This document shows, in pieces, positions 4,077 to 62,096 of a stretch of DNA of 64,000 nt. The translations under genes and the position numbers were made by a program. Source of the stretch: Candidatus Daviesbacteria bacterium GW2011_GWA1_41_61. GTDB lineage: Bacteria; Patescibacteriota; Microgenomatia; Daviesbacterales; UBA10151. The notes beneath the pieces are model-generated. The model ran no database searches. It worked only from the letters and a program-made list of their open reading frames with translations, and was not told the DNA's origin. The DNA is taken from contig LCBT01000001.1 of assembly GCA_000997385.1 (NCBI GenBank), positions 307,663 to 371,662 on the forward strand, written 5' to 3'. Every line of letters begins with the position of its first letter. The first letter of the stretch is position 1.

Positions 4077-4551
4077 GAATTAAAGATTTGTCACTAAAAA
4101 GACAAAGGATTCTAAATTTACTGGTTGATATAGCTTAACACCCTATAATTAGAGTTTGCAGATCGTAAAATACCCTGCGGCAGAGACCACAGGGAGTCTC
4201 TCATCCTTGAAAAAGTTTAAATTATCTCGCAAGTATTGCACCAAAACAGGCGTAAGATTACTTTTTGGGAGTTTAATATGGTTATTTACTATTATTGTTA
4301 AACCACGCAAAAGGAATATCTAAAAAATACCGAAAAACTCCAAAAAAGATTTCAACGCTTAGCAGTCAAAATAGAGAAAGAGGTGGAGAGAGATATAAAA
4401 GGATCGCGATAAAAAGTTCATGTATGATCCTTCGAATTTGCTCACCATACAAGGTTAAAAGCCAACTAACCCCAGGGGTTGGAACCCTTATTACCCTCCG
4501 GGTGTGAAATGCGTAGTTGCCCAGAGCCAGCAATATCTTGTGGTTACCTTC

Positions 4552-4935
4552 TTAACTATTCCCCTTTTGAGATGTAAAGGCGTTAATGCTTAAATACAAA
4601 GCAATACCAAGTGGTGCTGCATGCTCTATAGCATCCAAAAGTCCACTAATATTCATACTACTTAGCAAGAGTATGATAACTGTACCTATCCAAATGACTG
4701 CCCAAGTATTAATAAGTTTAGGTAATACTCGAAAAGCGATAAATATACCAATAATTGCATCATGTATACCTATCAGCTGAATTGGAACTTTATCTAGTAT
4801 GTTTTTAAAAATTACTGAATTAGCAATTACATCGCTGATTTCATCTGGAGAGATAAATGCTTTAACCGCCATGGCCACAAAAGTCAATGCAAGCCCCAGA
4901 CTAAGAATGTAGATATGCCACCTTTGCATATTCAT
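4552..4935 (-). CDS. small integral membrane protein, function unknown
   Basis: 127 aa with several hydrophobic helices and no recognisable family. Confidence 0.45.
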   Translation of the reverse strand: MNMQRWHIYILSLGLALTFVAMAVKAFISPDEISDVIANSVIFKNILDKVPIQLIGIHDAIIGIFIAFRVLPKLINTWAVIWIGTVIILLLSSMNISGLLDAIEHAAPLGIALYLSINAFTSQKGNS

Positions 4936-5095
4936 GTTTAGTTGATTTTTAAGCCACCTACTTTAATATTAGTAATAAGTTCCCACAGAGTCAACCCAGA
5001 TTAAATCGGAGCCAACCAGTGCCAGCAAGCTGGGCCAAGCAAAACTGACTAAGGTTAACACTTAAAATTAGAAACTGTGGTATAATACACAAGCA

Positions 5096-5365
5096 TTGAA
5101 TAACACCACCACCATCTCCGCTTCTTTAAAATGCAACCAGTGTGGCTGTGAACTCATTCTCCAAAAAACCGGTATCAGAAATACTCAAAATTGCTTCTTC
5201 CCTACCACAGTTATTACCTACCGCTGTTCTAATAAATCCTGTCAGGAGGAAATAGATAAGAAAACTGTTAAAAGAATCGAATTAAGACATGAGCAAGAAC
5301 TAGCCAGACAAAAACGTTTGGAAAATATGACCAATAGAAAGTATAATCAACCAAAAACTGTCTAA
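5096..5365 (+). CDS. small zinc-ribbon protein, hypothetical
   Basis: CNQCGC ... CSNKSC cysteine pairs and a basic C-terminus. Followed by a terminator. Confidence 0.4.
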   Translation: MNNTTTISASLKCNQCGCELILQKTGIRNTQNCFFPTTVITYRCSNKSCQEEIDKKTVKRIELRHEQELARQKRLENMTNRKYNQPKTV

Positions 5366-5397
5366 AAGGGCACCGGTTTACACCGATGCCCTTTTTT
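5364..5397. terminator. bidirectional rho-independent terminator
   Basis: AAAAGGGCA-ccggtttacaccga-TGCCCTTTTTT lies between the convergent genes ending at 5365 (+) and 5400 (-). Confidence 0.6.
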
Positions 5398-5399
5398 AA

Positions 5400-5744
5400 T
5401 TAATGACCTCGGCGGTTACCTCGGAAATTCCTATTAGAAGAAAAACTTGGTTTGTTATCTCTTCGATCAAACCCTCTTGAGAAATTCTCATCTCTTGGTT
5501 CTCTTGGCCTGGCCTCATTAACCACAATAGCCCGGCCGTCTAATGTCTGGCCGTTAAGCTGTTGTATTGCCTTCTGTGCTGCTTCATCATCCATTTCTAC
5601 AAACCCGAAACCTCTTGATCTACCGGTAAATTTATCATTTACGACGGTTGCTGATAAAACTTGTCCCACTTGAGAGAAAAAATCTTTTAATGATTGGTCG
5701 GTGGTATCCCACGAAAGTCCACCTATAAATAGTTTTTTAGTCAT
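5400..5744 (-). CDS. RNA-binding protein with RRM domain and an Arg/Gly-rich tail
   Basis: RNP-2-like KLFIGGLSW and RNP-1 RGFGFVEM motifs. 114 aa. Confidence 0.85.
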   Translation of the reverse strand: MTKKLFIGGLSWDTTDQSLKDFFSQVGQVLSATVVNDKFTGRSRGFGFVEMDDEAAQKAIQQLNGQTLDGRAIVVNEARPREPRDENFSRGFDRRDNKPSFSSNRNFRGNRRGH

Positions 5745-5932
5745 ACAGTTATCACCTCCAATTTATTCACGATCTCTGGCAAACTGTATAACTAACACTA
5801 TTTAAGAAGAAGGATAACTTTTCTTGCTAATAAGTTATATTAATACTAGTTACAAAAAGAGTAGTGAATTCTTATCCAAGTATATCATACTAATGCATTT
5901 CAAGCAACTAACCCGTAGTAAATTCGGGCATA

Positions 5933-7351
5933 TTAATTAAATAGACTGATTTGGCTCTTTTTTATAATTTTTGTAATAGCTTCATCTTCTACTTCTAAAA
6001 AATTGGGGTGTTCTAATAAAGTTTTAAATCTGGAAACCTGATTTGGTTTCTTTTGGCGTTTTTTAGCATACAATAAATACAGCTCTTCCTTAGCCCGGGT
6101 CATAGCAACATAAAGCAAACGTTTCTCTTCCTCTAAATCTGCCTCATTCTTTATGTAGGGAATCAAGCCTTCTTCAAAACCGCAGATAAAAACAAATTTA
6201 AACTCTAACCCTTTGGCAGCATGCATGCTTAATAGTTTGATATGGTCTCCTTCTACAGGTGTATCTTCTTTAACAATCTGATAGGGCATCCCTGATTCCT
6301 CAAACTGCTTTCTTAAAACACCGCTTAGATGATGAGCCCGAAAAACTACGGCAAAATCAGAAAAATTTACCTGGGTTACCAGATGTTGAGCCTTAAGTAA
6401 ATCAGTTCCTCCGATTTTGTCACTGATAAATCTGATAACCCAGTCTGCCTCGGAGTATTCATTTAAAGTCTTAACTAAAGACACTTTTCCACCTTTCTTT
6501 GAGGCAGGTTGTAGAGTTAAAGACTGAGGAAACAACAAATTACTTATTTGTACAACATTGCTGTGACTGCGGTAATTAATACCTAAAGTTTCTTCACAAA
6601 CTGCTGAAAAATCATCTTTTAAAGTCTTAAAAACCTCGGCACTGGCTCCCCGAAAGCCGTATATTGACTGAAAAGGATCGCCAATTACAAAAAGATTAGG
6701 ACTATCCTTTAAAATCATTTTAATAATTTGATATTGCAAATCATTAGTATCTTGAAACTCATCTATCAAAATATATTGATAAAGATTTTTTAGTTGCCGT
6801 CTCTTATCATTTTTCTCTTCTAAGCTCTTGTACATTTGCATTAACAGATCATCAAAATCTAGAAGTTGTTGCTGATTCAATGCCTTATTGTAATCTACAA
6901 TAAGTCTCTCCATCTCTGAATCTTTTTTAGAAGGGTTAGTCGTACTTTTATGTTGAGAAATAATTACAGACAAAGCGCGGGGGGATATCTTAACTTTACT
7001 TTTTCCAGCAACCTTTTTTAAAAGAGTCTCCTGATCTTCTTCAGAGATAATCTTAATCTCCCCAACTAAACCAGTTAAAAAATTAAAGGCCAAACCATGG
7101 AAAGTGGTTATTGTTGGCAAGTTACTTCCCAATATTAGGTTTAATCTCTCCTTCATCTCTAAAGCTGCCCGTTGGGTAAAAGTAAGAGTTAGAATATTTG
7201 CTGGGTTAATATGCTTTTCTAATATTAAATATGCCACCCTGCTTATTAAAGTTTTCGTCTTACCGGTTCCTGGGCCAGCCTTAACCATGACTACTCCGTC
7301 ACCTTGTTCTACAATCTTCCGTTGCTGATCATTTAAATCCAGAAAATCCAT
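5933..7351 (-). CDS. UvrD/PcrA-family DNA helicase (compact, 472 aa)
   Basis: Walker A GPGTGKTKTL, a DEFQD-like box (LIDEFQDTN) and motif VI LYVAMTRAKEEL. Confidence 0.8.
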   Translation of the reverse strand: MDFLDLNDQQRKIVEQGDGVVMVKAGPGTGKTKTLISRVAYLILEKHINPANILTLTFTQRAALEMKERLNLILGSNLPTITTFHGLAFNFLTGLVGEIKIISEEDQETLLKKVAGKSKVKISPRALSVIISQHKSTTNPSKKDSEMERLIVDYNKALNQQQLLDFDDLLMQMYKSLEEKNDKRRQLKNLYQYILIDEFQDTNDLQYQIIKMILKDSPNLFVIGDPFQSIYGFRGASAEVFKTLKDDFSAVCEETLGINYRSHSNVVQISNLLFPQSLTLQPASKKGGKVSLVKTLNEYSEADWVIRFISDKIGGTDLLKAQHLVTQVNFSDFAVVFRAHHLSGVLRKQFEESGMPYQIVKEDTPVEGDHIKLLSMHAAKGLEFKFVFICGFEEGLIPYIKNEADLEEEKRLLYVAMTRAKEELYLLYAKKRQKKPNQVSRFKTLLEHPNFLEVEDEAITKIIKKSQISLFN

Positions 7352-49983: not shown

Positions 49984-51051
49984 CTAACCCGCTTCCTCAA
50001 CCAAACCTTCTTCCCCTTCTTCTTTACCCACCACTAACTCTTTACCGGATTCTTGTTTACCCCACTTGTCTCTAATATCTTTTTCCAGTTTTTCCGCCAG
50101 TTTTTTATCTTCTTTCAAGGTAATTATTGCTGCTTGTCTGCCTTGACCCAATAATTGTTCTTCCCATTTAATAAAAGCCCCAGATTTTTGCAGGATTCCC
50201 AGTTCAATCCCAACATCCAAAAGCTCCCCTTCATGAGAGATGCCATCAGAATCCATATCAAACTCAGCAATCCTAAATGGGGGAGCAACCTTATTTTTCA
50301 CCACCTTCACCCGATGTCTGGATCCTACCACCACATCTCCATTTTTGATATTTTCAATCTTTCTGATATCCAGCCGGACCGAAGCGTAGAATTTCAGAGC
50401 CAACCCTCCGGTAGTGGTTTCCGGGTTGCCGAACATCACTCCAATCTTTTGACGAAGTTGGTTGGTAAAGATAGCAATAGTGTTAGTGTTGGAAATAGCC
50501 CCGGTAAGCTTTCTTAAAGCTTGGGACATCAACCTTGCCTGCATTCCCATCACTGCATCTCCCATTTCACCCTCAATCTCAGCCTTCGGAACCAAGGCTG
50601 CTACCGAATCAATGACAATCACATCAATACCTCCAGAACGTATTAGCGTATCAGCAATTTCTAAAGCTTGTTCGCCGGTGTCTGGTTGAGAGATTAAAAG
50701 CTCGTCTAAGTTGACTCCCACTCTTTGAGCTCTTTGGGGATCTAAGGCATGTTCAGCATCAATAAAAGCTGCAGCCCCGCCTTTTTTCTGGGCCTGGGCG
50801 ATAACATACAAAGCCACGGTAGTTTTTCCGGAAGCTTCAGGTCCATAGATTTCAATGATCCTGCCCGTTGGTAAGCCGCCAACACCTAAGGCTAAGTCTA
50901 AAGCTAGAGAACCGGTGGAGATAACACTGCCCGCCAGTTTTTCCGCTCTTTCACCAAGCCTCATAATTGAACCCGTGCCATACTGTTTTTGAATTTGCTG
51001 CATAGCAGCTAAAATGGCAGCTTTTTTAGCATCTTTATTATCTATGGCCAT
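49984..51051 (-). CDS. recA: recombinase RecA
   Basis: Walker [11 protein letters not shown]1/L2 loops and full RecA length. Confidence 0.95.
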
Positions 51052-51250
51052 ATTTATACATAATAACAAAACCCGAAACGTTGTCAATCCCCAATTTTAG
51101 TCTAATTTTGTTGTATGGATACATAAATACATATTAAATAGAGTAGAGGATTAGGAGTAGTTAATTGTGGGAGTAAAGTTTAACTGCTTGAGTAATTTCT
51201 TCAGGGATCCCTTGAATACAATTATATCTTTTAACATCTTCCCCATCTAC

Positions 51251-51312
51251 CCAGGCTCAATTTTGCGGATTCCCTTTCAGTCGAGTTATATCGAAAAATT
51301 CGAACTCGCTTC
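51251..51312 (-). repeat. degenerate partial copy of the tRNA-Pro 3' half (pseudo T-arm) plus 35-nt trailer, direct repeat of 53442-53476
   Basis: 31 of 35 nt match the trailer of the intact tRNA-Pro. The adjacent minus-strand GCGAGTTCGAATT resembles the tRNA T-arm GGGAGTTCAATT. Confidence 0.6.
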
Positions 51313-51689
51313 AAGTCGAATCGGTAGGCGCGCTACGCGCGCCACCTTACTGCGAAGCAGGAGCTTCGCTCATCCGCTCGACCTTCGGCCGAAGCTCTTA
51401 AACTGTCGGTTGAACTCCGCCATAGGCGGACAAAAAACGCGAAAATTTTTTAAAGAACTTTTTTCTTTTGTTTTTTCACTTAAAAGGCGCAACCGGTGGA
51501 CTCAGCAAGAAATTGCTTTCAACTGTCCGATTGCGCCATTAAAAAAAGCAATTTCCATTAAAACTGAGTCCACGAAAAATTTAGCAGTTAAAGAATCTTA
51601 AAGCAAGAATGATTATCTAATGCAAACTAAATCAGAAGATATAAGTTTATCAGGAAGATTAAAATTCCAATTGTAATACAGCCATTTTT

Positions 51690-53096
51690 ATGAAATACTG
51701 TAAGCATATGGAAACAGATAAAATTCCTCAAGAATTACCTATGGCTCAAGCTCATCTTGAAAATGAGTCTGTACATAAAAGTTTTTTAAATCAAAGGGGC
51801 AACTTTCTTCTTATTCTTGGTGCCGTTGTTACTATTCTTGTCGTGATTGGGGCAGGAGGATATTTGTTAACAATGAATAAGAATTCAAACCCGAACCAAT
51901 ATTCTCCTCAAGCAACATCTACTTCAACTCAACCAATATCGTCAAATGAAACTGCAAATTGGAAAACATATACCAATAAACAATATGGATTTACTTTTAA
52001 ACATCCTAACCTGTCACTTGAAGGTTCTATCTGCGGCCAAAAGCCAGTTGCTAATTCTGATATTGAAATATTAAGTCTAACTAGTATATCGGTAGATACA
52101 CCAAACTCTTGTGATTCATTTAATTACTATCTCGTATTTCACATCAATAGCAAAGACGAAACAATAGATCAGGAAATACAAGCCATTAAAGATAGCTTAG
52201 ATTTTAAGGATAGAGATGTCGTTATTACTGAGGAAACATTAGGGAATTACAAAGTCAAGAAAATGTCATTAATAACAGATTTGCCTACTGAGCCAAAGAC
52301 ACAAGCAAGGAATTTTTGGTTTGTCAAAAATAATGAATATTACTTCTTCTACGATCCTAAAATAAAAAGCGTCTATACGATTTATGCCCACTTTGAAGAC
52401 CCAAAATATAAAAGTGATATTGAGAAGATAATCTCTACTATAGCTTTTGATTCTTCATTAACAAACATTGCAATTAAGACTCCCTTTTATCAATATTTTC
52501 CCAAAGAAGCATTTACAAGACCTGATTACACAAAAAGAAATTATGATAAAACCGCTCAATCCAGTTACACTTCAAAAGATTTTTATAGCCCTTTAGATAA
52601 GATTTCTGATGGCAATTTAGCGGACTTTAAGTGTAGCTATGATATTTATCAAGACCCAAAAAACGCAAGTTATCACTATAATATTATCGGTAAAGACAAT
52701 ACAAGTAAATCCTATGAGATTCCCATAGGAGCACAGTTATACCGGGTTCTAAACAACGATCCAAGAATAGGATTTAGGGGTTTTGAATACTGTTTAACAA
52801 GCGAGAACAAAGAATACATCTTAGCTACTTATAGCGGTGGTCCACTTGAACTAATCCAATTGAATGGTGACAAGGTAGATATCAAAGCAAAAGACCCACA
52901 AATAACTGGTTGGTATTCATCATGTAGCGATATCATAGCAATTACCAAGGATAATAATTTTTATATTAGATGTGGTGGAGGTGATACTACAACATATAGC
53001 TCAATAAGCAAAGTTGATGCAAATACAGGTAATATTAAAAAAATTATTGAATGTGTAGCTCCCGCAGAGGGAGAAACTAAATGTACATCTTTTTAG
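51690..53096 (+). CDS. membrane-anchored extracellular protein of unknown function (468 aa)
   Basis: N-terminal transmembrane helix (FLLILGAVVTILVVIGAGGYLL), then a Ser/Thr-rich linker and a large soluble domain with paired Cys near the C-terminus. Confidence 0.5.
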   Translation: MKYCKHMETDKIPQELPMAQAHLENESVHKSFLNQRGNFLLILGAVVTILVVIGAGGYLLTMNKNSNPNQYSPQATSTSTQPISSNETANWKTYTNKQYGFTFKHPNLSLEGSICGQKPVANSDIEILSLTSISVDTPNSCDSFNYYLVFHINSKDETIDQEIQAIKDSLDFKDRDVVITEETLGNYKVKKMSLITDLPTEPKTQARNFWFVKNNEYYFFYDPKIKSVYTIYAHFEDPKYKSDIEKIISTIAFDSSLTNIAIKTPFYQYFPKEAFTRPDYTKRNYDKTAQSSYTSKDFYSPLDKISDGNLADFKCSYDIYQDPKNASYHYNIIGKDNTSKSYEIPIGAQLYRVLNNDPRIGFRGFEYCLTSENKEYILATYSGGPLELIQLNGDKVDIKAKDPQITGWYSSCSDIIAITKDNNFYIRCGGGDTTTYSSISKVDANTGNIKKIIECVAPAEGETKCTSF

Positions 53097-53469
53097 ATTT
53101 ACAAAATAAAAATAACTGTCTGTCAAAATTTTCAGTAAATTGGCCAAAATGGTGGAAATTAGCCAACTACCTCCAGCCTTTCTAAATTTTCTGTATAATA
53201 AGGGAGTAAAAAAAGTTTTCGCGCTGGGTAGGTTGGGGCAAGAAAACATTTGAGGTTTGTCTTGTCCGGTGTAGCCGGACTATAATAATAAAAATCGCGC
53301 GCTCAAAAAATACATCCGAAGATTTAGCAATCTTCGGAAAAACTGTCGGCTCGAACTTCTTTTTAACTGATCGGCGGCTTGTCCCAGTTTACAAAAAGGG
53401 CTTTGCAGAGCTCTGCGCGCCCCCACCCGCGCAGAGTCACTCCAGGCTCAACTTTGCGGATTCACTTTC

Positions 53470-53543
53470 GGTCGGGGATGGGAGAATTGAACTCCCTACA
53501 TCCGGACCCCCAGCCCGGCGTTCTGCCGATGAACTAATCCCCG
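53470..53543 (-). tRNA. tRNA-Pro (anticodon GGG)
   Basis: Hand-folded on the minus strand as CGGGGAT-TA-GTTC-ATCGGCA-GAAC-G-CCGGG-CUGGGGG-TCCGG-ATGTA-GGGAG-TTCAATT-CTCCC-ATCCCCG-A-CC. It has a perfect 7-bp acceptor stem, U8, A14, G18G19, U33, a canonical T-loop, and C1:G72 with A73 as in bacterial tRNA-Pro. Confidence 0.9.
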
Positions 53544-53612
53544 TATTATTTGAATGATTATATGCAATTTTACCATTTACCAAGAAGAGAAAAAAGGATT
53601 ACTTTAAAAAAA

Positions 53613-54380
53613 TTAAATTTTACTTGGATCAAAATTAACTGAAGCCCATTGGAAATTAATATTAGAATCTGTCCTCTGATCCGCTTGGGATTGATTATCT
53701 ACAGTTGTTCCTTGACTAACTTTTACTGGTACAGATTGTTCTCCTGCTGTTAAGTTACCCTGTCTTTTTACAATAAGCATATTAATAGTTCTCTGGCTTC
53801 CATCTTCTCCATAAACTGTCAAATCTACTACCTCATCATTTTTCCCTTCTGTTGGAATATTCAAAGACTCTACCCCAAAAACAGAGTTAAGTATCTGGGT
53901 CCCCGTTTGTTTATTGAGAATATCTGGATTTTGCCACAATACAATTACCCCTGCTTCCTCATAAGGTCTAGATCCCCCTGGGATATCTTTAAGACCATCA
54001 TCAAATCTGCTAAAAATTGCTCCTCTTTCAATCTTATACCCCTTTCTTTTAGTTAATTCCTCGACACTTTTTCCTACATCTACTTGTGTCGCACAGGCAT
54101 CTGCTGCTACTTGAAATTCATTGAAATCACTGTCGGGGAGAACTACCTCTACCAGATTGATCTTATATTCTTCTGTAGCTGCTAAAAGTCTGGGGTCTAG
54201 TAAACTTCCACCTTCATCTGGCAAGGGAGCCACATTTTTAACTCCTCTGGTAATTATTTCTCTAAAAGATTGTGAACTAAAAAACTCCCTATCAGTATGA
54301 GGAAAATTAGAAACAGCATTATTTTTACTGACGCTGTCAGCTGAGAGATTGGGAACTAAAGATTTGGCTTCATTACCCAT
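53613..54380 (-). CDS. hypothetical protein (255 aa)
   Basis: No family recognised. Confidence 0.4.
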   Translation of the reverse strand: MGNEAKSLVPNLSADSVSKNNAVSNFPHTDREFFSSQSFREIITRGVKNVAPLPDEGGSLLDPRLLAATEEYKINLVEVVLPDSDFNEFQVAADACATQVDVGKSVEELTKRKGYKIERGAIFSRFDDGLKDIPGGSRPYEEAGVIVLWQNPDILNKQTGTQILNSVFGVESLNIPTEGKNDEVVDLTVYGEDGSQRTINMLIVKRQGNLTAGEQSVPVKVSQGTTVDNQSQADQRTDSNINFQWASVNFDPSKI

Positions 54381-54482
54381 AGTTTAGACTATATTAGGGG
54401 GATTATACTCTTATTAGTCCAGTTTTTCAAAAAGAAACCTCACAATAGGCTATTTTGGACTTTCCTAACTCTTATAATCCAG

Positions 54483-54878
54483 TTACTGTTTTTTTAGAAG
54501 ATATTTTTCAACTAACGCTATTAGATCATCTATATTAAAAGGTTTGGCTAAAAAATCATCAGCTCCTGCTTCCTTGGCAATCTTCTCCCCATGGCTTAAA
54601 GCGGAAATAGCAACAACTGGAATATGTTGGGTACTACTATCTTTTTTTAGCTCCCTAGTCACCTCATGTCCATCCATCCCTGACATCCACAAATCAATTA
54701 AAATAACTTCTGGCAGAAAATCTTTAACCCTTTTTTTAACTACCCTCCCATCGGCAACTGCTAAAACATCATATCCTTTATCCTCCAAGATAATTTTAAT
54801 AACTTCTAAAATACCCAGGTCATCATCAACTGCCATGACTCTTTTTTTACCACTGTCTTTTAAGGCCGCATTACTCAT
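54483..54878 (-). CDS. single-domain response regulator (CheY-like receiver)
   Basis: VMAVDDD, ILIDLWMSGMDG and AISAL receiver motifs. Confidence 0.8.
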   Translation of the reverse strand: MSNAALKDSGKKRVMAVDDDLGILEVIKIILEDKGYDVLAVADGRVVKKRVKDFLPEVILIDLWMSGMDGHEVTRELKKDSSTQHIPVVAISALSHGEKIAKEAGADDFLAKPFNIDDLIALVEKYLLKKQ

Positions 54879-61390: not shown

Positions 61391-61678
61391 ATGCAAACAT
61401 ATTCTCCTAATAATCGAGGAAAAGAAGAAATTTCTACCATTAGTAGTAAAGGGCAAGTAACTATCCCTGTTAAAGTCCGGAAGCATTTGGGAATAAAGAG
61501 TAATGATAAAATTGCTTTTGTTATTGAATCCAGTGGTGAAGTTAAAGTAACTCCAGCTAAATACCCTGATATCCAATCTTTAAAGGGAGTAGCTGGCTCT
61601 TTAACAAAACCTTTATCATGGGAAAAAGTTAAACAGATAGCTCAAGCAGATCGTCTTAGTAAAAAGTATGGCCGATAA
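61391..61678 (+). CDS. AbrB/MazE/SpoVT-family antitoxin
   Basis: SSKGQVTIPVKVRKHLGIKSNDKIAFV swapped-hairpin motif. Confidence 0.7.
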   Translation: MQTYSPNNRGKEEISTISSKGQVTIPVKVRKHLGIKSNDKIAFVIESSGEVKVTPAKYPDIQSLKGVAGSLTKPLSWEKVKQIAQADRLSKKYGR

Positions 61679-62096
61679 CCCACCCGCTGATCCCTACCTA
61701 GATACGGATATTATAATTCGGTTATTAACCTCCGACGATGTAAAAAAACAACAGGCTGCAGCTAAGCTATTTGAGCAGGTAGAAAAGGGAGAACTGCTTA
61801 TCTTGGCTCCAGATACAGTTATAGCTGACACAGTTTATGTTCTTTCTTCTCCCAGACTATATCATTTCCCCAGAGTTAATATCCATGATACCCTTTCTGT
61901 CTTGTTAAAGCTTCCTAATTTCAAAGTTGATAATAAACAAGCAATAATAAAAGCTTTAGATTTATATGTTACACATAATATTGACTTTTCAGACGCTTTT
62001 CTAGCTGCTTTGACACTTCAAACTGAGTCAAAGATTATTTTCTCCTATGATCTTGATTATAAAAAGATACCTCACTTAAAACGCATAGAACCTTAA
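61668..62096 (+). CDS. PIN-domain toxin (VapC-like)
   Basis: YLDTDIII and FSDAFLAALT acidic residues typical of the PIN fold. Overlaps the antitoxin gene by 11 nt. Confidence 0.75.
   Translation: MADNPPADPYLDTDIIIRLLTSDDVKKQQAAAKLFEQVEKGELLILAPDTVIADTVYVLSSPRLYHFPRVNIHDTLSVLLKLPNFKVDNKQAIIKALDLYVTHNIDFSDAFLAALTLQTESKIIFSYDLDYKKIPHLKRIEP

Follow-up and report, generated by a model that had tools for sequence, protein, structure and literature searches.

The segment between recA and a tRNA-Pro(GGG) gene in a genome of Candidatus Daviesbacteria (candidate phyla radiation, CPR; Microgenomates) raises the question of how a GC-rich, gene-poor patch came to lie there, bounded by two copies of a sequence that belongs in part to the 3′ end of the tRNA. 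The segment occupies positions 51251-53543 of a 64-kb window, the whole stretch of DNA analyzed here, to which all coordinates refer; fetched loci of relatives carry L-numbers, and homologs of the 468-amino-acid (aa) protein encoded in the insert by open reading frame ORF468 carry P-numbers. The initial annotation, made from the letters alone, regarded the arrangement as the footprint of an integration event at the 3′ end of tRNA-Pro and the single gene as a retained cargo surface protein. Both views were upheld, the former by the composition of the junctions and the homology of the non-coding modules to intact elements encoding a large serine recombinase (LSR), and the latter by homologs of ORF468 that sit in LSR elements. 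It is highly probable that the segment is a decayed, immobilized member of a family of small islands that integrate at the extreme 3′ ends of tRNA genes via an LSR, and that it has undergone two deletions, with ORF468 retained as cargo.

The tRNA-Pro(GGG) on the minus strand (53470-53543) was confirmed as intact by ARAGORN and Rfam (RF00005, 56.4 bits, E = 1e-10). The direct repeat described earlier is also real, although it measures 33 nucleotides (nt) with 30 of 33 identical in an ungapped comparison (51251-51283 versus 53442-53474), and not 35 nt with 31 identities. A gapped local alignment enlarges the repeat to 51251-51314 versus 53442-53501 (49 of 63 columns), taking in the acceptor 3′ strand and the T-arm, and its score of 54 is to be compared with 20.6 ± 2.6 (maximum 30) in shuffles; the T-arm-like strings GCGAGTTCGAATT and GGGAGTTCAATT are present at the two copies. 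The 22-nt core of the repeat, with up to three mismatches allowed, occurs exactly twice in the window against 0.00 expected (100 shuffles). The ORF list and the repeat search agree with the earlier statement that the repeats bracket a single 468-aa gene, since ORF468 is the one long ORF between them. The locus is 100% identical across independent ENA, JGI, and NCBI assemblies and is therefore no assembly artefact. ARAGORN and Rfam returned the tRNA alone in this area, and neither a tmRNA nor another known non-coding RNA was found by them in the GC-rich flanks. A 144-aa ORF (51167-51601, plus strand) without a Pfam match was judged spurious because it runs antisense across the NUDIX remnant and the T, psi, and B modules, which are described below.

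The apparent trailer of the tRNA is coding sequence. Positions 53291-53548 on the plus strand encode 86 residues that are 65% identical to residues 439-524 of the intact 533-aa LSR of L031 (tblastn, E = 1e-28), so that what was read as a repeated "trailer" is the 3′ part of an LSR coding sequence; the initial annotation, in which no integrase was thought to remain, had overlooked these last 86 codons. In blastn, the remnant is 87% identical over 256 nt to L154 and 89% identical to L093, and 53290-53545 matches the LSR end together with the tRNA of many elements at up to 89%. The frame is open from 53210 to 53557 and runs through the antisense tRNA. The intact LSRs of relatives contain the Pfam domains Resolvase, Recombinase, and Zn_ribbon_recom, and all three are present in those found at tRNA-Pro in L031, L067, L094, L095, and L098. 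The corresponding domains are missing from the insert along with the first ~438 codons, and the insert is therefore a relic rather than a functional member of the family. Judging from these homologies, the recombinase is a serine integrase and not of the tyrosine type implied by the classical picture of a tRNA island; the insert has no recombinase homology except to LSRs, and a Pfam search of the ORFs in the area gave no phage-integrase domain. LSR C-terminal remnants beside a co-oriented tRNA-Pro are also found in L018 and L085. Furthermore, a terminator-like hairpin, read in tRNA sense, lies antisense within the surviving codons (Table 1) and covaries among L031, L067, L040, and the window (TCCGAAGAT with ATCTTCGGA, CCATGATC with GATCATGG, and CGAAGAAT with ATTCTTCG), so that one sequence is under both coding and structural constraint. 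The hairpin probably terminates the tRNA-Pro transcript. The surviving LSR stretch is exactly that from the tRNA up to this hairpin, and we infer that it was kept by selection for a correct tRNA-Pro 3′ flank and termination.

When metagenomes were scanned with an LSR profile, 68 loci were recovered; viral contigs scanned with the same profile gave one distant match only. The 3′ end of the LSR gene abuts the 3′ end of an antisense tRNA in 28 of the 39 evaluable loci, mostly with an offset of 0-1 nt, and at least 15 tRNA species are targeted, including Pro(GGG/TGG/CGG), Gly, Glu, Lys, Val, Trp, Gln, Leu, and others. Read in LSR sense, with a slash marking a junction, an intact element has the layout X′/psi′ - cargo - psi/T - LSR, the C-terminal coding end of the LSR (T′) lying against an oppositely directed tRNA. 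Psi is located 100-250 nt upstream of the LSR start, independently of the tRNA targeted; a longer psi profile finds a match upstream of nearly all LSRs, and a second, inverted psi occurs 1-8 kb further off in about 12 loci. The tRNA side and the LSR-proximal psi have ~118 nt in common (T, antisense to LSR codons ~461-498; 91-97% identical), beginning 4 nt before the tRNA end; the two psi copies within an element have 82-102 nt in common (98-100%), stopping at the junction; and the tRNA side and the distal psi have nothing in common. The junctions tRNA/T, psi/T, and psi/X therefore have the compositions expected for attL (B/P′), attP (P/P′), and attR (P/B′), respectively, where the psi/T copy is an extra, internal, inverted, attP-like one. 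Common to all three junctions are only the last 4-7 nt of the tRNA, a core that varies with the target (CGAC for Pro, TCAC for Lys, TCCAC for Val, CTGC for Trp, and GCTAC for Glu), whereas the remainder of psi is conserved across targets, including the T-loop-like GAGTTCGRAT. Since psi carries this motif, the recombinase may read the universal T-arm, with the short core setting the choice of target. The motif lies 25 nt from the junction in psi (window, L094, and L124) and 21 nt from it in real tRNAs; an offset between the half-site motifs of attP and attB is a known property of LSRs. In a few loci, namely L108 (5546-7119), L153 (1396-1915), and L139 (19-1439), a tRNA co-oriented with the LSR (Pro-GGG, Gly-CCC, and Glu-TTC) stands in place of psi directly upstream of the LSR gene, and the recombinase arc thus also exists in an alternative orientation.

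Seen against this layout, the proximal junction of the window is of the attL type, with tRNA-Pro as the B arm and the shared core CGAC (tRNA nt 71-74) at 53471-53474. The distal junction is an attP-type psi/T in which T ends after 33 nt and is direct relative to the tRNA. Positions 51251-51583 match the whole B-psi/T block of L154, L094, and L124 (74-80% over 213-341 nt, blastn), a block normally placed between the cargo and the LSR, and psi itself carries the T-loop-like motif GAGTTCGAAT together with the target-matched core CGAC at 51280-51283. The string that the initial annotation had read as a decayed T-arm-like segment is thus present, but it is a conserved module of the element and not a decayed duplicate of the host tRNA: this segment is 84-93% identical to sequences in other genomes, is preceded by covarying GC hairpins, and accompanies LSRs whose targets include tRNA-Pro, -Lys, -Gly, -Glu, -Val, -Trp, and -Gln; the match to the target is confined in each case to the final 4-7 nt of the module. 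A profile of psi and B has a single match in the 64-kb window (nhmmer). All non-coding pieces of the insert map to element modules in blastn, including B_L, which lies directly inside the distal psi in intact elements and is oriented toward the LSR remnant in the window. Beyond the distal repeat copy, 51170-51256 on the minus strand encodes AWVDGEDVKRYNCIQGIPEEITQAVKLYS, the C-terminus of a NUDIX protein whose gene is intact directly upstream of recA in L015, L023, and L026 (Pfam NUDIX). The expected empty site, with tRNA-Pro directly beside recA, accordingly needs correction: a NUDIX gene lay between them and has been cut to 29 codons at the repeat boundary, the truncation point being the outer end of the repeat. 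Read in the direction of the tRNA, the locus is therefore ordered tRNA/T - antisense LSR codons 498 to 439 - B_L - reversed ORF468 - pseudoknot, hairpins H_a, H_b, and H_c, and psi/T (33 nt) - NUDIX C-terminus - recA.

Both deletions are marked by short sequences at their junctions. The 13-mer AAAAATCGCGCGC is present in intact elements within B_L and again at LSR codon ~439, and a deletion between these direct repeats requires an isomer with flipped cargo. At the other junction, the partners are T (...TTGAGCCTGG/ATTGG) and the NUDIX gene (...TATGCCTGG/GTGGAT in L015), fused at the microhomology that they have in common. In the sequence of events that we propose, the element would have entered between tRNA-Pro and recA by strand exchange within the 4-7-nt core (tRNA nt ~71-74 for Pro), leaving the tRNA intact, and the window would represent an isomer with the cargo arc flipped relative to most intact elements. 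A deletion between the 13-nt repeats would then have removed the internal psi/T and LSR codons 1-438 and spared the tRNA-Pro 3′ flank with its terminator, and a deletion at GCCTGG would have joined the distal psi/T, 33 nt into T, to the last 29 NUDIX codons upstream of recA, ORF468 being retained throughout as cargo. The distal junction is attP-type and not a clean attR, which calls for further events, namely deletions in addition to either a tandem copy or an older remnant. The distal T copy may have come from a tandem second element, from entry beside an older T remnant, or from use of an attL-like site, and we do not choose between the first two. A tandem origin has a parallel in L101, where two elements lie in the order LSR1 - T′/psi′ - cargo - psi/T - LSR2 against tRNA-Lys, both LSRs being directed toward the tRNA, with a direct psi/T junction; an older remnant is in keeping with the distal T of the window, which is identical in 32 of 33 positions to the trailer of L085, a locus that has such a remnant without an LSR. 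A single LSR-mediated inversion or deletion via a pseudo-attB in the NUDIX gene was also considered and rejected, as it predicts T′/NUDIX-C or psi/NUDIX-C, whereas psi/T(33)/NUDIX-C is observed.

The recA loci of 80 species-level relatives (L013-L092) were fetched for comparison. A tRNA-Pro(GGG) lies upstream of recA in 64 of them, in 47 divergently and usually 70-250 nt away, and in 17 co-oriented and often 0.65-3.9 kb away, and the linkage spans Daviesbacteria, Levybacteria, Gottesmanbacteria, and Woesebacteria. Relatives show tRNA-Pro adjacent to recA or to NUDIX without an insert, and an intact LSR converges on tRNA-Pro in L031 (533 aa) and in L067 (502 aa). Independent support comes from L162, in which tRNA-Pro(GGG), directed toward the element, is followed by T (~50 nt), Bro-N, a reverse-oriented pseudoknot block, the P0012 gene, an IS1595 transposase, and B_L-H_b-H_c-psi. 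Its psi stops 3 nt before an intact NUDIX gene, and the locus shows the attB form tRNA-Pro/NUDIX, both genes directed alike. Window 51400-51760 is ~85-90% identical to its L162 counterpart, except that H_a is swapped for a compensating stem, and P0012 is 63% identical to the N-terminal module of ORF468 over 107 aa. Judged by these modules, L162 is a second decayed element of the same family, with the same tRNA and cargo family and the opposite cargo orientation. Short partial duplications of tRNA-Pro ends were also noted in L017, L021, L022, L031, and L087, and the tRNA-Pro/recA site looks like a recurrent recombination hot spot. In L085, a Daviesbacteria relative, an 812-aa ORF with RecA homology (4411-6849) may be an intein-containing or fused recA.

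The non-coding part of the element is structured. In the pseudoknotted motif (B-distal), 10 of 20 pairs are compensatory according to RNAalifold; in a 15-sequence alignment, 88.2% of cells are paired against 74.0% in shuffled alignments, none of 500 shuffles reaching the observed value, and both sides change in 19 of 30 pairs. The covariation score is 0.422, compared with 0.178 in shuffles and at most 0.179 in slid controls. Conserved U·G pairs assign the fold to the psi/LSR-sense strand, and a TATAAT-like box lies 7-9 nt upstream of the pseudoknot in most elements. Between the pseudoknot and psi, hairpins are parted by conserved single-stranded anchors (GTTCAACCGACAGTTT and others); folding of the anchor-delimited segments in 25 elements shows that the three hairpins keep their position with unrelated stem sequences (mean z of −2.1 and −2.5). 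RNAalifold gave no consensus on the whole 215-nt B-psi alignment, because gaps accumulate at the variable hairpins in the MAFFT alignment; B-psi folding was therefore done between anchors, and the B-distal block was aligned separately. Apart from the tRNA, Rfam 15 gave no match at E ≤ 1 in window 50500-54500 or in L094 4700-7900. Taken together, these features are suggestive of a structured leader or non-coding RNA that may extend from the pseudoknot, across psi and T, and into the LSR gene. The B_L and LSR codon-439 regions (L124 2776-2960; L094 4869-5060; LSR codons ~436-445) have in common AAAAATCGCGCGC...GCAAAAAATAC followed by a hairpin, and the motif GTTCGAGCCGACAGTTT is found in B and, in antisense, within the C-terminal part of the LSR; the non-coding modules of the element look like products of a duplication of the LSR 3′ region.

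ORF468 has a predicted transmembrane helix at residues 39-56, in line with the membrane-anchored extracellular protein proposed initially. Its N-terminal ~100 aa (cytoplasmic tail, transmembrane helix, Ser/Thr/Pro linker, and NETANWKTYT) recur at 60-74% identity ahead of unrelated ectodomains in other proteins. No significant Pfam domain was found in ORF468, only sub-threshold matches including a weak one to PsbP_2. A model built with AlphaFold2 (AF2) has a predicted local distance difference test score of 66.5 (moderate confidence), and Foldseek relates it to PsbP, Mog1, and Apa (probability 0.97-1.0, TM-score ~0.45-0.48); these hints, which apply at the domain level, suggest a PsbP/Mog1/Apa-like first ectodomain followed by a beta-rich C-terminal domain. 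The description that fits ORF468 best is that of a polymorphic, membrane-anchored surface protein. Proteins of this family recur as cargo, with homologs in the LSR elements L003 and L162. The closest full-length homolog, P0002 (69% identical), is found on three contigs beside a 591-aa LSR and a small helix-turn-helix protein, where the LSR stop codon overlaps the 3′ end of tRNA-Lys; at the far end of the L003 element, no tRNA-derived repeat was found on the short contig. Proteins with the N-terminal module of ORF468 (P0005-P0015; L162 1865-2863; L165 3860-5071) also adjoin IS1595, Bro-N, or PIN/Phd genes, and the family looks cassette-like and polymorphic. The cargo between the psi copies of intact elements comprises a MutS-like ATPase with Shedu, a restriction-modification (R-M) system with an Abi-like ATPase, a reverse transcriptase with bAvd, and a PIN toxin-antitoxin (TA) system; further cargo includes an M23 peptidase with a 1131-aa beta-helix protein, a beta-lactamase-fold protein, an MFS transporter, and an RsmB-like methyltransferase. 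The tRNA-Val elements L106 (6849-9534) and L107 (1096-3773) carry a reverse transcriptase, a bAvd-like protein, and a 271-aa ORF, and this cargo looks like a diversity-generating retroelement (DGR) riding on the island.

Table 1. Positions of the features recognized in and around the insert, numbered along the 64-kb window.
Feature	Position	Strand	Description and basis
Host NUDIX hydrolase, C-terminal remnant	51164-51256	-	29 codons and stop; tblastn to the NUDIX genes of L015, L023, and L026, E ~ 1e-7
Deletion junction 2	51251-51256		6-nt microhomology GCCTGG common to T and NUDIX
Truncated T copy	51251-51279	-	29 nt (33 nt with core); 30/33 identical to the tRNA-side copy, 32/33 to the L085 tRNA-Pro trailer
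Psi, attP-like P arm	51280-51326	-	TACCGATTCGACTTGAAGCGAGTTCGAATTTTTCGATATAACTCGAC; alignment, nhmmer profile, junction table
Hairpins	51327-51430	-	H_a 51416-51430; H_b 51376-51397; window-specific hairpin 51352-51369; H_c 51327-51343
Pseudoknotted motif (B-distal)	51486-51572	-	Helices GGACTCAG/CTGAGTCC, GAAATTGCTTT/AAAGCAATTTC, and GGCGCAATCGG/CCGGTTGCGCC, the last crossing the other two
ORF468 cargo gene	51690-53096	+	Single-pass membrane-anchored extracytoplasmic protein (predicted); ORF list, homologs, alignment, AF2, Foldseek
B_L module	53183-53302	+	Conserved non-coding block; blastn 74-83% to L124 2837-2943, L094 4932-5047, L093, L101, and L154
Deletion junction 1	53290-53302	+	One copy of the 13-mer AAAAATCGCGCGC; B_L leftward, LSR codon 439 onward rightward; compared with L124, L094, and L154; blastn matches of the two sides overlap here
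LSR C-terminal pseudogene remnant	53291-53469	+	About codons 439-498; T′/P′ arm forming the tRNA "trailer"
Terminator-like hairpin	53305-53338	-	TCCGAAGATTGCTAAATCTTCGGA (53338-53315) then TGTATTTTTT in tRNA sense; antisense in LSR codons ~441-452; terminator scan

Several points weigh against the origin proposed here. A single canonical attP × attB integration predicts psi/X at the distal end and not the direct psi/T observed, which calls for the further assumption discussed above. Canonical LSR att sites are ~40-50 bp long with a 2-bp crossover and, to our knowledge, are not usually located at tRNAs; we also know of no established role in LSR biology for an internal inverted attP-like copy such as that of the intact elements. 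The family's LSRs are known from sequence and their activity is putative, and the LSR of L003 is only ~29% identical to the tRNA-Pro subfamily. The orientation of tRNA-Pro to recA varies among relatives, and larger rearrangements at the locus are thus possible. Finally, no conspecific empty site was found, the contigs with an identical RecA being of the same strain and all carrying the identical insert. These points notwithstanding, an LSR island remains the account that we favor, and the other explanations are best judged by what they make of the same modules. If a tyrosine-integrase element had duplicated the 3′ half of the tRNA, lost its integrase wholly, and left a distal copy to decay by random mutation, direct repeats with tRNA 3′-end sequence around a single cargo gene would result, and tRNA 3′ ends are classical targets of tyrosine integrases. 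This history is nevertheless scarcely credible, as the trailer encodes the C-terminus of an LSR, no tyrosine-integrase remnant is seen in the insert, and the supposedly decayed T-arm is conserved elsewhere to the extent given above, including beside LSRs aimed at unrelated tRNAs. Moreover, conservation is higher in the trailer part of the repeat than in the tRNA-like part, contrary to what uniform decay would give, and the well-conserved repeat consists of element sequence (T) with the 4-nt core and not of a duplicated tRNA 3′ segment. A dispersed repeat such as a miniature inverted-repeat transposable element, or mere chance similarity, would have only the shortness of the exact repeat in its favor and is practically negligible, given the two occurrences of the 22-nt core and the one match of the psi and B profile in the window; the copies in other genomes are tied to LSR genes and tRNA ends, and the refuting condition attached to the initial annotation, a dispersed repeat family, was thus not encountered in the window.

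The inverted psi copies around the cargo, nearly identical within an element and with the LSR gene just outside, also invite comparison with a programmed inversion switch resembling Mu G/Gin or a shufflon, in which inversion by the adjacent recombinase would toggle cargo expression and the window would have been frozen after loss of the recombinase. The window and L162 share a homologous unit of pseudoknot and surface-protein gene (85-90% identical) and carry it in opposite orientations relative to tRNA-Pro, the 13-nt-repeat deletion needs the flipped isomer, and both orientations of the LSR arc are found (L108 and L153 against the majority). The isomers are, however, known from comparison between genomes, RecA-mediated recombination between inverted repeats of 90-118 nt would give the same isomers, and we know of no LSR that recombines identical sites; furthermore, the close association with the 3′ ends of many different tRNAs suggests that the main activity is integration. 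As an explanation of the locus such a switch is therefore unlikely, although it is compatible with integration, the two not being mutually exclusive. Even less can be said for a domesticated regulatory RNA, in which the minus-strand psi-B block would be kept for a transcript toward recA or as a divergent promoter region serving the expression of recA or ORF468. The three pseudoknot helices are all intact in the window despite the loss of the LSR, the covariation is strand-specific and accompanied by a promoter-like box, and the block is 85-90% identical to L162 over ~300 nt of non-coding DNA; such conservation may, however, stem from recent decay, and the psi-B module lies upstream of nearly every LSR gene of the family, so that its primary role is tied to the element, which leaves domestication very unlikely. 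In a bolder extension of the favored LSR island, the family would form an undescribed class of tRNA-targeting LSRs that jointly has three traits: modular retargeting through a T-loop-mimicking attP arm and a swappable 4-7-nt core; a ~450-nt upstream transcript (pseudoknot, three hairpins, psi, and T) acting as a functional RNA partner in the regulation of directionality or expression or in target pairing; and an internal inverted attP copy that makes the cargo and recombinase arcs invertible and varies the surface and defence cargo. That all three hold together is unlikely.

Some neighboring features were noted in passing. On the 5′ side of tRNA-Pro, a 255-aa ORF (53613-54380, minus strand) has no Pfam match and no homolog in the recA loci of the 80 relatives; the adjoining response regulator and histidine kinase likewise have no homologs in those loci, and the tRNA marks the exact point at which synteny is lost. 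A MazE-like antitoxin and PIN toxin pair lies at window 61391-62096 (plus strand), according to the gene calls of the identical contig L001. Upstream of recA, a promoter-like site at 51060-51087 (minus strand; TTGACA, 16 nt, TG-extended TATTAT, 11 of 12 matches) ends 9 nt before the recA ATG at 51051, a distance that suggests a leaderless or very short-leader recA mRNA, and the TTG-start call of a 367-aa recA ORF is probably 12 codons too long.

The odd GC-rich, gene-poor patch beside recA can thus be explained as a disabled mobile island whose legacy is a surface protein, a tRNA terminator, and a shortened NUDIX gene. This relic led to a coherent and apparently undescribed family of 1-8-kb islands in Microgenomates (CPR), a group in which mobile elements are poorly characterized, and the islands carry anti-phage systems (Shedu, R-M, DGR-like, and TA) together with polymorphic surface proteins. 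The modularity, if true, would offer a natural example of easily retargetable serine integrases, which would be of interest to genome engineers, and the pseudoknot would be a new recombinase-linked structured RNA.

A full-text literature search found no description of tRNA-targeting LSR elements in CPR, an absence that is no proof of novelty, and the word "tRNA" is absent from the open-access text of a large LSR survey (PMC10083194). Among known systems, the bridge RNA of IS110 and the seekRNA of IS1111 are likewise encoded in a structured non-coding region directly upstream of the recombinase that includes an element end with a short target-matching core; the recombinases are unrelated (DEDD/RuvC-like with Tnp versus LSR), the resemblance is superficial, and nothing in the present comparison points to RNA-guided target recognition. 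The segments inverted by serine invertases (Mu G/Gin, P1 C/Cin, and Salmonella Hin) likewise have inverted repeats around surface-type cargo, a serine recombinase gene immediately outside, and both cargo orientations, which are seen here between genomes (window versus L162), whereas the LSR of the family has ~500 aa and not ~190 aa, its repeats are 80-118 nt and not ~26 bp, and no enhancer or Fis logic is known for it. With tyrosine-integrase tRNA islands and prophages (P4-like and lambda-like), the family shares the targeting of tRNA 3′ ends, the supply of the sequence past the crossover by the element, variable defence, surface, and TA cargo, repeat-bounded decayed relics, and tandem arrays at hot spots (L101 here); it differs in that the recombinase is of the serine type, the block of identity is 4-7 nt and not 15-50 nt of tRNA, and the long repeats are T and psi and not tRNA. 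Close counterparts are also the known LSR elements (phiC31, Bxb1, TP901-1, A118; SCCmec CcrAB; Tn4451 TnpX and Tn5397 TndX), which have the same Resolvase, Recombinase, and zinc-ribbon architecture as the intact relatives and whose scheme of attB × attP giving attL and attR, with a very short shared core, fits the junctions of those relatives. SCCmec inserts at the 3′ end of orfX/rlmH and, like the family, thus uses the 3′ end of a conserved gene that is kept intact. Compared with these elements, the family is set apart by its targeting of the extreme 3′ ends of at least 15 tRNAs, an attP arm that mimics the T-loop, an LSR stop codon at or inside the tRNA, an extra internal inverted attP-like copy, ~450 nt of structured, pseudoknot-bearing sequence upstream, and hosts in the CPR (Microgenomates).

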